Shown one piece after another: positions 21,855 through 27,656 of a DNA stretch of 64,000 nt. Origin of the DNA: a virus; the IMG/VR virus record IMGVR_UViG_3300035660_000002, positions 1 through 64,000 of that record, one strand, 5' to 3'. Below the pieces are notes generated by a model. It was not told the DNA's origin and ran no database searches. It saw nothing but the letters and a program-made list of their open reading frames with translations. Each line of letters starts with the position of its first letter. The stretch's first letter is position 1. A program made the translations under genes and the position numbers.

Positions 21855-22484
21855 TTACTGGCTGGCGAACTTCTTCCGGAGTTGCTTCTCTGTCCTGACT
21901 ACCACATGTATGATCCATGTCTTACTCTTTCTTGCCTTCTCCGCTATCTCTTTGTATGTCATGTCCATCTCATACCTCATCACGAACATGTCCCAGTGCT
22001 CTCTCTTGAGCTTACCCTGCTTTATCATGCCCTCCACCACCTGCGCTACAATGAACCTCTTTATGATCCACTCCTTCTGTACCCGGGCTGTCTCGCAGCT
22101 TTGCTTGTAGTCCTCAAATAGTGCCGCGCTTATTCCACAGGGGACATATCTACGTTGCTCCCTTATCACTACCTTTATTCCATTCCTGATATATCCCTGC
22201 AGGTATCTGGGAAAGTAGTGTAGACTGCCTTTCTTGAAATCAAACTTGAGGAGCGCATCGTACAGCGCTATGACGGCTATCTGGTATAAGTCCTGATTCT
22301 CTACCTCTTCCAGCTCCTTGTATCGCTTCCGCTCCTGCCAGATCATCTTCATCATGAGCTTGTTCACCCTCGCCAGCACCTTGTGCCAGTACCACGGCTC
22401 CCGGGTGCGCTGGAACTCTCTCATGAAGTATTCGAGGTTCTCCGGAAATACTGTCTCCCCCGATGACGGCTTGATCTTTGTCAT
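21855..22484 (-). CDS. Phage sigma-70-family sigma factor
   Basis: Region 2 (DLYQIAVIALYDALLKFD...FPRYLQGYIRN) and region 4 HTH (FVMRYEMDMTYKEIAEKARKS). Confidence 0.85.
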   Translation of the reverse strand: MTKIKPSSGETVFPENLEYFMREFQRTREPWYWHKVLARVNKLMMKMIWQERKRYKELEEVENQDLYQIAVIALYDALLKFDFKKGSLHYFPRYLQGYIRNGIKVVIREQRRYVPCGISAALFEDYKQSCETARVQKEWIIKRFIVAQVVEGMIKQGKLKREHWDMFVMRYEMDMTYKEIAEKARKSKTWIIHVVVRTEKQLRKKFASQ

Positions 22485-25400
22485 ATTATTCCTTTACCTC
22501 GCATCCGGCTGCCTCGCAGCTTCCTCAAAGCCTCTGCCATCTTGATGTTGTTATCCTTCGACATGTTCTTGCCTTCCAGCAACACTCCAGCCCCCATTTC
22601 CTTCTTCGACTTGTCCGCTATGAACCAGTCCTCCGGTAGGCCTGCTGGCGCCTTTGATGTGCTTCTAAGCGTCCTTAGAGTATCTATGTGCTTCTGTATA
22701 TCTACCGGTCCTCTCGCGTTTATCATGGCCGAGTATACCGATCCCGCGACCGCATCCGCTACGTCCTTCGATCCCATCACTACCACGTCTCTGTACTCTC
22801 CTCCGGGCAAGCGCTCCATATCCTTTACCTTCTCCGGATGATCCACCTTGTTGCGCTTCTTGTCATATTCCAGGTTCTTGAGCTCGAACATCAGCCACTT
22901 ATGCGGATGACATATCCATCTCTTATCATATAGCAGGTTCCTAAAGTCCAGGTATGGCTTCGGGTCTTTGTCCATCGAGAGCGATCCGGCCGTTATCTTC
23001 GCCTTCTCTAGTATCTGGATCGTCACCTCCGACGCCAGCCTCAAGTCGAATGTCACCACTTGTATATTAAGACCGGCCGCTCTCAAGTCCAGGATAAACT
23101 TGTGGACGGCCGTCATGGGAATCCTGTCGCCTTCCCTCGCCTTCAGTCTCAATATGAAGTCTGTCTCTATGATAGGAAACTTTTGCCTCTTGAATGTGCC
23201 TTCCTCTTCCTCCACATCAAGCTCCACCCAATCCGCCACGCCGCTGCACGCCAGCCCCAACGCGTCCTCCGTGAACGCTATATCCACATGTATCGCTCTC
23301 GGAGTCCGTATGTTGTTCCGTATCTTGGTTATGTCCAAATGATGTATGAGTCTCTCCTCATCTTTAAGGCCGACCTCTATCGTCTCCGCGTCTATAGGAT
23401 CCTCTTTGGTATCATCAAAACAATCCTTTATAAACCTCTCTGTCGGTATAAGCTTTCCGGCCCGTAGCCCCTTTACGGAGATGCCGCCTATATCTCGCAA
23501 TGCTCCCGCCGCGTCCTGCTCAAACTCGAAACGATGCTCTATCGGCACCTCAACCATCCTGAACCCTTCTTTGAGATGCCTGTCGTATTCTTCCTTATCT
23601 ACTATCTTTGGAGGATTGTATTGATCGCCAACCGATACAAAGAACTTCTCCCCCGAATAGTTGCTCTTCGGAAATATTTCCCATTGCGATTTTTCAAATA
23701 CCACCACCTTCTTCGAGTGCTTCATCTCCTCCACAAATATCTCGAGGAACGACAGCTCGTCCTGTTTCGATGCCACAAGAAAAAGCCGGCCCAAGCTCTC
23801 GCTGTTTACCACGAACCTGGATTCAAACCTTCGCACAGTGGCCTCATATGCCTGCAAAACTCTCTTGCGTTGCCCTTCAGATTCGTTAGGAGAGTCTACC
23901 TCATCCATTACCCCGGCCACTATGTTGCCTCCAATTGTCCCGAACCCACGAGCATATGGCGACGCTAGCACCCATGTGTACAAAGGCAGATCCATGATCC
24001 TGTTGTCCTGCCCTCCATGAATATGTCCACGTTCCCGAAACCATGGCGATTTTATCAGCGCATTCTGCATGTAAGAAAATCCTTTTGAAACACTCAAACT
24101 TTTCGTGAGATTAAAAAAGGATACCTCGAGCTTTCCGGTATCCATCTTGCTAAACAACTGCCACGGGTCCGCCAAACATCCTATGTGATACAGAATATAT
24201 GGCATGCACAGTCCGCACACTACCATAGTGTTATGGCAAACCGTAAAATCTTTCATGAGGTACAATTCATCGCCATCTAACATAAATCCGTAATAGTCCT
24301 CCGCCGGAAGTTCTCTCAAAGCAAACCCTGTAACTAAAACATTTTTTTTCTGACGCCGTTTTGAGCATTTCTTTCTATCTAATCTAATCGGTATCTGATC
24401 CAGATCTCCTGATATACTTACACGAAAGCTCTTAAAAAACTTGCCCAGACACTTAGTGGTTCTTTCTTTCATATACGCTGCAAACCCCAGAGACCTGCAT
24501 AAAAAGAGGACATCCTCACATAATTTTTTGTTTTTATTAGAAAACTCCAAGCAATTACTGGCGTATAATCCGTCCGTATCGATGAGCCCTGCAAGAATCT
24601 GAAGGCGTACTTCTCTGGAATTTACTTTATAAATCTCAGGGACATGCTTGTTGTACATAAGGTTAAGCTTTTGAAACTTTTCCAACAAAGCATTTTTAAC
24701 CTTTCTTTTTCCTGTTATGTAATAAGTACTACATTTTTTACTATGCCCTCCGTTCTGCGCGATACGAACAAACAGTCCCGCCTTTTCAGCCTCTTGGTAA
24801 ACAACTTCACGAATTTCATCATCTATTGTTGAAATAGCTACATAGTCATAGCAACCGTCCCCCAGCCATACTCCCAAGAAGTAGGGGTCTATAGGCACTT
24901 TTTTATAAGAAAATTCAACCCCGGTACGCCACAACTTAAAAATTCCCTTGAAACTTTTGGAAAGTTTCAAGTATTCTGCGATAGACATATTTACTATCTG
25001 ACCGTCCTTGCCACAAACCTTTCCACCATCCTTCCGTTTTTTGTGCATGAGGCCACGATTAGTTCTTTTAAGAGACAATATGTGATCCTTATTTACAACA
25101 AAGGGTTCTCCTTTTGTAGGACGCACTTCGTACATTATATCTCGTCCACGTGCAAGACGTCGAATACAACGAGATCTGCTGTCCACACCCATCACTAAAT
25201 CCCCTACACGCAAATCTTCCACACGGCAAAGACTTCCGTCATGCATCAATATTTCAGTACCTTTTCGATGACACTTCCCGATCCCTATGCTGCCTGTAAG
25301 CACCACCAAATATTTTGAATCGTCGCTGAATATGCGTTCAATCGGCTTGTGCCATCCCGGGTATACCGCCGACAAGTTCTTTGTGTATGCCCCAAGATAG

Positions 25401-25534
25401 TAGTCGTCTTTCAGAAACTGCATCACATCCACAGGCTTCTCTCTGTATACAAGACTCTGCAGATGATCATAGTACCCCCGCATGTCTGTTTTCTTTCCTG
25501 TTATCTTCTCTTCCGATTTCTTAGCTTGTCCCAT
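22481..25534 (-). CDS. terL: Terminase large subunit with intein
   Basis: Walker A LTGSIGIGK|T after splicing, Walker B GVMDEVD, nuclease IHVDIA..DALG and KDVADAV. Confidence 0.92.
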   Translation of the reverse strand: MGQAKKSEEKITGKKTDMRGYYDHLQSLVYREKPVDVMQFLKDDYYLGAYTKNLSAVYPGWHKPIERIFSDDSKYLVVLTGSIGIGKCHRKGTEILMHDGSLCRVEDLRVGDLVMGVDSRSRCIRRLARGRDIMYEVRPTKGEPFVVNKDHILSLKRTNRGLMHKKRKDGGKVCGKDGQIVNMSIAEYLKLSKSFKGIFKLWRTGVEFSYKKVPIDPYFLGVWLGDGCYDYVAISTIDDEIREVVYQEAEKAGLFVRIAQNGGHSKKCSTYYITGKRKVKNALLEKFQKLNLMYNKHVPEIYKVNSREVRLQILAGLIDTDGLYASNCLEFSNKNKKLCEDVLFLCRSLGFAAYMKERTTKCLGKFFKSFRVSISGDLDQIPIRLDRKKCSKRRQKKNVLVTGFALRELPAEDYYGFMLDGDELYLMKDFTVCHNTMVVCGLCMPYILYHIGCLADPWQLFSKMDTGKLEVSFFNLTKSLSVSKGFSYMQNALIKSPWFRERGHIHGGQDNRIMDLPLYTWVLASPYARGFGTIGGNIVAGVMDEVDSPNESEGQRKRVLQAYEATVRRFESRFVVNSESLGRLFLVASKQDELSFLEIFVEEMKHSKKVVVFEKSQWEIFPKSNYSGEKFFVSVGDQYNPPKIVDKEEYDRHLKEGFRMVEVPIEHRFEFEQDAAGALRDIGGISVKGLRAGKLIPTERFIKDCFDDTKEDPIDAETIEVGLKDEERLIHHLDITKIRNNIRTPRAIHVDIAFTEDALGLACSGVADWVELDVEEEEGTFKRQKFPIIETDFILRLKAREGDRIPMTAVHKFILDLRAAGLNIQVVTFDLRLASEVTIQILEKAKITAGSLSMDKDPKPYLDFRNLLYDKRWICHPHKWLMFELKNLEYDKKRNKVDHPEKVKDMERLPGGEYRDVVVMGSKDVADAVAGSVYSAMINARGPVDIQKHIDTLRTLRSTSKAPAGLPEDWFIADKSKKEMGAGVLLEGKNMSKDNNIKMAEALRKLRGSRMRGKGII
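24230..25273 (-). mobile_element. Intein (348 aa) with LAGLIDADG endonuclease in the terminase Walker A
   Basis: CHRKGT...VNKDHIL...LGVWLGDG...LAGLIDTDG...YYGFMLDGDELYLMKDFTVCHN|T. Confidence 0.93.
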
Positions 25535-26794: not shown

Positions 26795-27040
26795 CTATTT
26801 GCTTTTTTGCGGCGGTTCCGGTACCGCTGCCGGTACTGCGGATCCTGCCATGGCCTGTTGCGGCGCTCTCGGAGCCGGCTGCGACACTGGGCCGGTTAGG
26901 GCGCGCACCAAAGCATCATGTGCATTTGCCACTTTAGTGATCCGATCGTTCATCCCACCTATGTACAGTACCCCCACAAGGAGCACTGCGGCTATCAGCA
27001 TCCCTATAATTATATAAGCGAGCTTCTCTAACAACTTCAT
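26795..27040 (-). CDS. Small membrane protein with Pro/Ala-rich tail
   Basis: TM helix LAYIIIGMLIAAVLLVGVLYIGG. Confidence 0.6.
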   Translation of the reverse strand: MKLLEKLAYIIIGMLIAAVLLVGVLYIGGMNDRITKVANAHDALVRALTGPVSQPAPRAPQQAMAGSAVPAAVPEPPQKSK

Positions 27041-27057
27041 GTTGTCTCACCCCCTTT

Positions 27058-27294
27058 TCATTTACTATGTCCTTCGATAAAATTGTATACGTCCTCGACA
27101 GTTTTCATCTTGTCGGCATCCTCGTCTGGTATCTCAATGCCGAACTCCTCCTCCAACGCCATAATCATCTCTACCAGATCAAGCTCGTCTGCATGAAGAT
27201 CCTCAACGAGCTTGGCGCTGTCTGTAACTGTATCCTCCTTCGCACTGAGCTGATATGCGATGATCTTCCTGATCCTGTCTCGAGATATCCCCAT
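27058..27294 (-). CDS. acpP: Acyl carrier protein homologue lacking the phosphopantetheine Ser (DSL to DEL)
   Basis: LVEDLHADELDLVEMIMALEEEFGIEIPDEDADK aligns to AcpP [34 protein letters not shown]; the Ser position is a GAG codon at 27184-27186. Confidence 0.88.
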   Translation of the reverse strand: MGISRDRIRKIIAYQLSAKEDTVTDSAKLVEDLHADELDLVEMIMALEEEFGIEIPDEDADKMKTVEDVYNFIEGHSK

Positions 27295-27332
27295 TTATCC
27301 TCTCTTTCTTGATCTCAATATTACCATGATCT

Positions 27333-27656
27333 TTATAGCTCTTCGTCTCCTTCGACACTCTTGGTACCTTCGGAGCCTGCAGCATCTGTGCTCTCAGCGT
27401 CCTTCGCTGACGGTATTCCGCTCCTGTCACGCTTCTTTGCGTCCGATGCGGGCTCTTTCATCACGACTGTCACTTCAGTCGCCTGAGGGCCTCTCTCACC
27501 CTGGGCAGGAGTGAACTCCACCCGTTGCTCGTCTCTCAGCTTTTTATAACCTTCGGCCTTGATGGCAGAGAAATGCACGAAGTAATCTTTGCCGTCCTCC
27601 CCGGTTATAAAACCATACCCCTTCTTCTCATTAAACCACTTTACTTTTCCTTTCAC
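27333..27656 (-). CDS. cspA: Cold-shock protein with C-terminal extension
   Basis: [29 protein letters not shown]1/RNP2 motifs. Confidence 0.93.

Follow-up and report, generated by a model that had tools for sequence, protein, structure and literature searches.

Does a phage gene that resembles an acyl carrier protein (ACP) gene throughout still encode a carrier when glutamate has replaced the serine that receives 4'-phosphopantetheine, and if it does not, what might its product do in the infected cell? This question is raised by a locus in the first 64,000 nucleotides (the window) of IMG/VR record IMGVR_UViG_3300035660_000002. The source record is the complete genome of a sediment phage, 133,462 bp in length and bounded by direct terminal repeats.

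An AcpP homologue without the cofactor serine

The coding sequence occupies positions 27058 to 27294 on the minus strand and specifies 78 amino acids from an ATG start to a TGA stop (stop included). Direct reading of the sequence revealed a Shine-Dalgarno-like GAGAGG (27299-27304, minus strand) 4 nt 5' of the ATG. The close similarity to AcpP noted in the initial annotation was borne out by family profiles as well as by the predicted fold. The protein matched PF00550 (E 1.2e-9, 38.7 bits, cut-off 20.8), PHROG 5934 'acyl carrier protein' (E 4e-20) and the AcpP equivalog TIGR00517 (92.7 bits, cut-off 70.45), and routine annotation would therefore name the gene acyl carrier protein. An AlphaFold2 model built on a 39-row alignment reached a pLDDT of 90.7 and contained four helices (residues 5-15, 37-51, 57-62 and 66-76). 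Its top PDB match in Foldseek was E. coli butyryl-ACP (1L0I; TM 0.92, rmsd 0.7 Å, 54% identity). The phage protein shares with the AcpP of type II fatty acid synthesis (E. coli, 1L0I/1L0H) the four-helix fold and, with altered hydrophobic residues in helix II, the acidic face of helices II and III, and its pI is 4.3 compared to 4.1 for AcpP.

The protein thus passes the AcpP cut-offs and has the four-helix bundle of the ACP fold, but the serine of the D-S-L motif that receives 4'-phosphopantetheine is replaced by Glu37. Though homologous to AcpP, it cannot function as a carrier, and it should not be filed as one because this defining residue is missing. The earlier suggestion that a serine-less protein would escape phosphopantetheinylation is supported at the level of sequence.

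Authenticity of the replacement

The initial annotation had described a change from DLGADSLD to DLHADELD, and this is the motif present in the 78-aa protein. The plus-strand bases 27184-27186 are CTC, which gives GAG (Glu37) on the coding strand. This codon fills the slot of the phosphopantetheine serine (E. coli Ser36) and encodes the first residue of helix II (residues 37-51; 27142-27186, minus strand), as delimited by DSSP and per-column comparison. All 118 nearest homologues have serine in this column, and 117 of the 118 have DLGADSL. It had been argued that GAG lies at least two substitutions from any serine codon and that an error is hence unlikely. The argument holds, and GAG is three substitutions away from the TCC of co-occurring cellular acpP contigs. 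Moreover, the gene is identical in the 133-kb contig of the source sample (depth 17.6) and in a 585-base contig of a different sample and study that spans 27011-27595. This identity in two samples makes a sequencing or assembly error very unlikely. Cellular acpP contigs of the same samples cross-map to 27107-27162 with 80-90% nucleotide identity. Only the rarity of the gene would suggest a normal acpP that was misread or misassembled, and the chance of this is negligible given a change of at least two bases, the identical sequence in the 133-kb contig and in the contig of the independent sample, and the additional changes at several adjacent conserved residues. The serine-less feature is real.

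Origin and divergence of the gene

The best matches among 5.8 billion proteins were canonical AcpPs with 60-68% identity, and all source-named ones belonged to Omnitrophota; identity to the E. coli protein is 54% in the structure alignment. An orthologue of the serine-less gene was found neither among these 5.8 billion proteins nor by a direct search of IMG/VR. In a tree of 136 rows, the 78-aa protein was nested among 26 cellular Omnitrophota-type AcpPs in one clade (SH-aLRT 97) with P0003 and P0031 as sisters (SH-aLRT 84), and the clade contained no second serine-less protein. This nesting inside a cellular clade indicates the capture of a host-type acpP. Within the clade, the phage protein had a root-to-tip distance of 0.45, against a median of 0.135 for the other members, none of which exceeded 0.19; compared with its cellular clade-mates, its branch is elongated about 3.4-fold. 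The GC content of the gene (46.8%) equals that of the genome (47.4%). Tree position, root-to-tip distance and GC content together point to a captured host-type acpP whose capture is no longer recent and which evolved fast afterwards. A host assignment via the adjacent cold-shock gene was uninformative, as its best matches came from Clostridia and Thermotogota and not from Omnitrophota.

Among cellular relatives, 55 columns show a conservation of 90% or more, and 15 of these are altered in the phage protein: G17S, V18A, E21D, E22T and F29L; G34H, S37E, T40L, L43M and V44I around the attachment site; E61D; G67E, A69V and Y72F in helix IV; and K76H. Residues 45-60, which comprise the second half of helix II, the loop and helix III and form the acidic docking face (27115-27162, minus strand; per-column comparison), match the consensus of the nearest cellular AcpPs at every position. 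D36, D39, E42 and E48-50 are unchanged as well. In E. coli these residues are the contacts for AcpS and IscS (bioRxiv 10.1101/2025.01.28.635281; PMC13343975). In contrast to AcpP, the phage protein combines glutamate in place of the cofactor serine with G34H, T40L, L43M and V44I near the attachment site. T40L, L43M and V44I alter the hydrophobic face of helix II, and the central triad changes from LVM to MIM. Since these three changes coincide with a long branch, there is room for a shifted specificity, and the protein could have moved away from the standard clients of ACP, possibly towards a phage partner.

Recurrence and selection of acidic replacements

A DNA template that fixes helix II only (D-x-L-x-x-[V/I/M]-E-x-x-h-A-L-E-E-E, codon at x varied) was used to count the residues at the serine position. 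Among IMG/VR contigs it retrieved 78 with serine and seven with aspartate or glutamate, eight including the genome of the window; there were no contigs with any of 13 other residues (Ala, Gly, Val, Thr, Asn, Lys, Arg, Pro, His, Gln, Tyr, Cys and Trp). The eight acidic cases represent about six lineages; aspartate occupies the position in the first IMG/VR match (L001) and glutamate in L003. The same template applied to 120 sampled Pseudomonadota genomes yielded serine in 111, Asp/Glu in none and other residues in none, and the ratio of acidic residues to serine was higher in IMG/VR than in these genomes (Fisher p = 0.001). In 185,579 species genomes, 19 ACP-like genes with Asp/Glu were detected. 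Metagenome contigs contributed 70 acidic ACP-like genes, which fall into 35 or more clusters at 60% identity. The acidic-replacement rule is strong but not absolute, because less template-like viral ACPs with alanine (L015) and glycine (L029) exist.

The initial annotation had proposed a search of phage ACPs for recurrent changes of serine to Glu/Asp under purifying selection. Such changes were found: pairwise dN/dS was 0.06-0.3 within nine serine-less clusters, with dS often >1. The acidic residue is hence no accident, as Asp/Glu recur in many phage look-alikes under purifying selection. One phage family of 13 proteins had aspartate in ten, glutamate in three and serine in none. On the tree, the state switched between serine and acidic at least 14 times, a rough count on a short and poorly resolved tree. 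The per-column residue profiles of serine-less and serine-bearing viral ACPs were the same apart from position 36, which indicates that the serine-less class is still constrained like a docking-competent ACP. A class-wide remodelling of the acyl pocket was not seen in the same comparison, position 36 being the only one to differ. Judged from their sequences, the serine-less proteins constitute a class of selected, non-acylatable ACP look-alikes which would have to act via binding.

Similar serine-less look-alikes occur in IMG/VR records 3300028298_000007, 3300020576_005257 and 3300023115_000059. The protein of the window is 39-57% identical to the other phage look-alikes over the aligned stretch. 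It branches with the cellular Omnitrophota-type AcpPs and not with these proteins, which argues for an independent origin.

Acidic copies were also observed outside of phages. Two of five acidic-copy genomes probed with the template also hold a template-matching serine copy. These are G011, a 4.1-Mb Gammaproteobacteria MAG with a serine AcpP plus a Ser-to-Asp/Glu paralogue (C1:1114231-1114275 and 1710042-1710086), and G013, a cyanobacterium with both a canonical serine AcpP and such a paralogue. Because the two forms occur together in these genomes, the soil family 'cluster 0' (14 metagenome contigs, always Asp) seems to be chromosomal and not phage-borne. A contig of a Nostoc sp. MAG (L228:6058-6294, plus strand) encodes a 78-aa ACP with glutamate at Ser36, which by eye we take to be nearly identical to enterobacterial AcpP. 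The gene adjoins a broken DDE transposase and a GH116 glucosidase, and it could be a second captured host acpP with a Ser-to-Glu change or a contamination. A 525-bp ENA contig (P0002) encodes a 126-aa protein of one and a half canonical ACPs fused in frame, which could stem from a tandem duplication or from chimeric assembly.

Genomic context and search for partners

The serine-less gene is part of a tight minus-strand run of genes for a RuvC-like resolvase, a 69-aa ORF, a cold-shock-domain protein, the ACP look-alike and an 81-aa ORF, followed by a 240-aa ORF, a 164-aa ORF and the large terminase. Between the gene and its flanking minus-strand genes, neither a promoter nor a terminator consensus was present. 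The complete phage genome contains no other PP-binding gene, and searches for a PPTase (PF01648), an AMP-ligase (PF00501), a ketosynthase (PF00109) and a PlsC-type acyltransferase (PF01553) found none in it. Unlike AcpP, the protein is phage-encoded, lacks a fab or PPTase context and has the elongated branch described above. Five other phage records with a serine-less gene each had one confident PP-binding gene above the family cut-off, and a PPTase was not found in these five.

Several features of the neighbouring genes were recorded. The cold-shock-domain protein directly upstream (27333-27656, minus strand) has a C-terminal extension of about 40 aa that is charged and of low complexity, and its best matches are 65-aa Csp proteins without such a tail. 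The 81-aa ORF (26795-27040, minus strand) begins 17 nt past the ACP gene; it has no family match and, by eye, one N-terminal hydrophobic stretch and a Pro/Ala-rich tail. The large-terminase ORF (22481-25534, minus strand; 1017 aa) contains an apparent LAGLIDADG-type intein that begins with Cys, includes an LAGLIDTDG motif and ends in His-Asn.

An all-against-all comparison of the genes within 6 kb of about 70 serine-less loci revealed no shared conserved neighbour. Only the RuvC-like resolvase recurred, at two loci in addition to the window. When 74 neighbours were tallied by Pfam and PHROG, they formed a heterogeneous mixture of phage and cellular functions. Domains fused to serine-less ACPs elsewhere (Rosetta-stone test) had no homologue in the phage genome of the window, and no ACP-dependent defence system was identified. 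In a 235-kb phage record (L045:3949-4811, plus strand; IMG/VR 3300020576_005257), the end of an HD_4-like gene and a Ser-to-Glu ACP gene overlap by ATGA. The match of the HD_4-like gene to this RelA/SpoT-type hydrolase fold (E 7e-5) is below the cut-off, and the overlap may hint at a link between ACP and alarmones in that phage. A DUF5662 gene adjoins the ACP gene in L108, and DUF5662 is also encoded by the phage of the window. The lead towards HD-phosphohydrolases was dropped, since DUF5662 occurred in none of the five other serine-less phage records versus one of five serine-bearing ones. In IMG/VR 3300037424_001312 (L001:5914-6642, plus strand), a Ser-to-Asp ACP is fused to a C-terminal domain of about 150 aa that matches no Pfam family; in its neighbourhood are genes for a dATP/dGTP diphosphohydrolase-like protein, a T4-type RNA ligase and an NADAR protein.

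A putative competitor of host ACP

The 78-aa protein is very probably functional as a non-carrier look-alike of ACP. The reading we favour, with a confidence that falls somewhat short of even, is a converted host-type AcpP that mimics host ACP and competes with it in a dominant-negative manner. The initial annotation had envisaged an unmodifiable decoy that titrates ACP partners. An unmodifiable AcpP homologue and a selected acidic swap were indeed found, whereas the titration, the partners and the physiological effect are what we infer from them. The phage would have turned its copy of a host-type AcpP into an obligately cofactor-free form. Glu37 is predicted to lie in the opening turn of helix II, the site at which holo-ACP bears the phosphodiester of 4'-phosphopantetheine, and it would refuse the cofactor while keeping or adding negative charge there. 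The retained fold and the acidic face of helix II, loop and helix III could occupy ACP-binding sites on host proteins, and it is this retention without the cofactor that suggests competition at the docking sites. The mimic would engage sites that accept cofactor-free ACP, with the acidic side chain replacing the charge of the phosphodiester, and once docked it would neither deliver nor accept an acyl group. The most plausible outcome would be that ACP-dependent envelope-lipid metabolism is modulated or shut down during infection, similar to the poisoning of glycerol-3-phosphate acylation by apo-ACP in E. coli.

The preference for Asp/Glu has several possible reasons, among them phosphate mimicry, repulsion of the AcpS-CoA complex or stabilization of the helix N-terminus. 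Cells contain ACP in very large amounts, and to compete with it by plain displacement the mimic would have to be strongly expressed or bind more tightly. Small acidic decoy proteins of phages exist, such as DNA mimics. Like these, the protein of the window is small, very acidic and probably acts by occupying a binding site; unlike the DNA mimics, it is a true homologue of the mimicked protein, and mimicry of DNA is not indicated.

Among candidate targets, PlsB, MukB and AcpS, which accept apo-ACP or are inhibited by it, appear to fit better than SpoT. According to PMC4736557, which cites Keating et al. 1995, apo-ACP and the obligate apo mutant S39A suppress growth of E. coli, and apo-ACP inhibits the glycerol-3-phosphate acyltransferase. 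The ATPase of MukB is stimulated equally by apo- and holo-AcpP (PMC8602292). ACP(S36T), which served as the non-modifiable control in a study of SpoT (PMC3340395), showed no binding to IscS in direct assays (PMC13343975). The block of the stringent response suggested in the initial annotation is disfavoured by our comparison. The E. coli ACP exchanges L42M, V43E and M44I break the two-hybrid contact with SpoT, FabZ, FabA and PlsX (PMC3340395), and L43M of the phage protein corresponds to L42M. The S36T variant also loses binding to SpoT, and ACP-binding SpoT is limited to beta- and gamma-proteobacteria (PMC3340395, PMC13343975).

A wider form of the competitive-mimic reading seems possible to us, if on the unlikely side. 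Phages from many lineages would have repeatedly captured the acpP of their hosts and, through a single Ser-to-Glu/Asp change that mimics the phosphodiester charge, turned it into a 'locked' ACP that jams a low-abundance ACP-sensing host protein, a convergent and so far undescribed means of host takeover or counter-defence of which the window would hold an independent, Omnitrophota-derived instance. Candidate targets would be a gatekeeper of lipid synthesis, an SMC/MukB-like complex or a defence component.

Competition need not be involved if the phage has recruited the ACP fold for an adaptor or structural role, with the protein serving as a small acidic partner of a phage protein or of a specific host protein. 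We consider this unlikely, though it is the alternative with the most in its favour. Ser-to-Asp/Glu ACP domains are fused into larger proteins in the phage or metagenome contigs L001 (242 aa), L067 and L092 (>470 aa) and L099 (349 aa), and a jumbo-phage fusion with glycine (L029, 438 aa) has a sister with serine (L025). The changes T40L, L43M, V44I, G67E, A69V and Y72F and the long branch would also suit a new partner. A precedent is the mitochondrial ACP of Plasmodium falciparum, in which phenylalanine replaces the serine and which binds Isd11-Nfs1 without the cofactor (PMC8547962). This natural ACP, which lost the attachment serine and acts by protein binding, is the nearest functional precedent for the phage protein; it differs in its hydrophobic replacement, where the phage protein is acidic, in its eukaryotic organellar setting and in its partner Isd11-Nfs1. 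The adaptor explanation is weakened by the lack of a neighbour conserved across the serine-less loci, by fusion-partner domains without a homologue in the phage genome of the window, and by the surface profile of ordinary ACPs that the serine-less class shares.

The protein might instead trap AcpS, the host PPTase, by docking via D36, E42 and E48-49 without being modifiable, and thereby block the maturation of new host carriers. AcpS is scarce in cells, and little inhibitor would be required. AcpS recognizes D35, E41 and E47/E48 of E. coli ACP, and all of these residues are kept (bioRxiv 10.1101/2025.01.28.635281). The effect within one infection may be small, as the existing pool of holo-ACP is large and stable, and a carboxylate near the CoA pyrophosphate might repel; a trap of this kind is improbable in our view.

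There is likewise little probability that the captured acpP, having lost its serine, is a neutral relic on its way to loss. A singleton without orthologue among 5.8 billion proteins, with a long branch and 15 altered conserved columns, might well look like one. Its frame is intact, however, and is preceded by a Shine-Dalgarno site in a densely packed series of genes; the fold model is confident, and a stretch of 16 residues is fully conserved. A relic is also at odds with a GC content equal to that of the genome, with an identical sequence in two samples and with a replacement by the residue class selected in at least 35 other lineages.

Relation to described phage ACPs

Full-text literature searches found no description of phage ACPs with a Ser-to-Asp/Glu change. 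A paper on Vi01-like phages only lists a 'putative acyl carrier protein', and in a paper of 2026 a phage ACP was predicted to dock on host FabZ, with no discussion of the serine (PMC13291599). The window adds an independent origin inside a cellular AcpP clade, a like-for-like census of residues at the serine position, in which acidic residues alone replace serine, and a contrast between cells and viruses. Annotation pipelines count such genes as auxiliary lipid-metabolism genes though nothing can be carried by their products. If the proteins are mimics of host ACP, as we tentatively prefer, they would represent a widespread and convergent interference of phages with a central hub of bacterial metabolism and could serve as natural probes for ACP partners that do not depend on the cofactor for binding. 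Since some of the carrier phages are culturable, this can be tested directly. In the Ackermannviridae, MAM_092 of Serratia phage phiMAM1, annotated as 'acyl carrier protein', reads D-E-L-D and is likewise acidic at the serine position; five other ACPs of cultured phages keep the serine.
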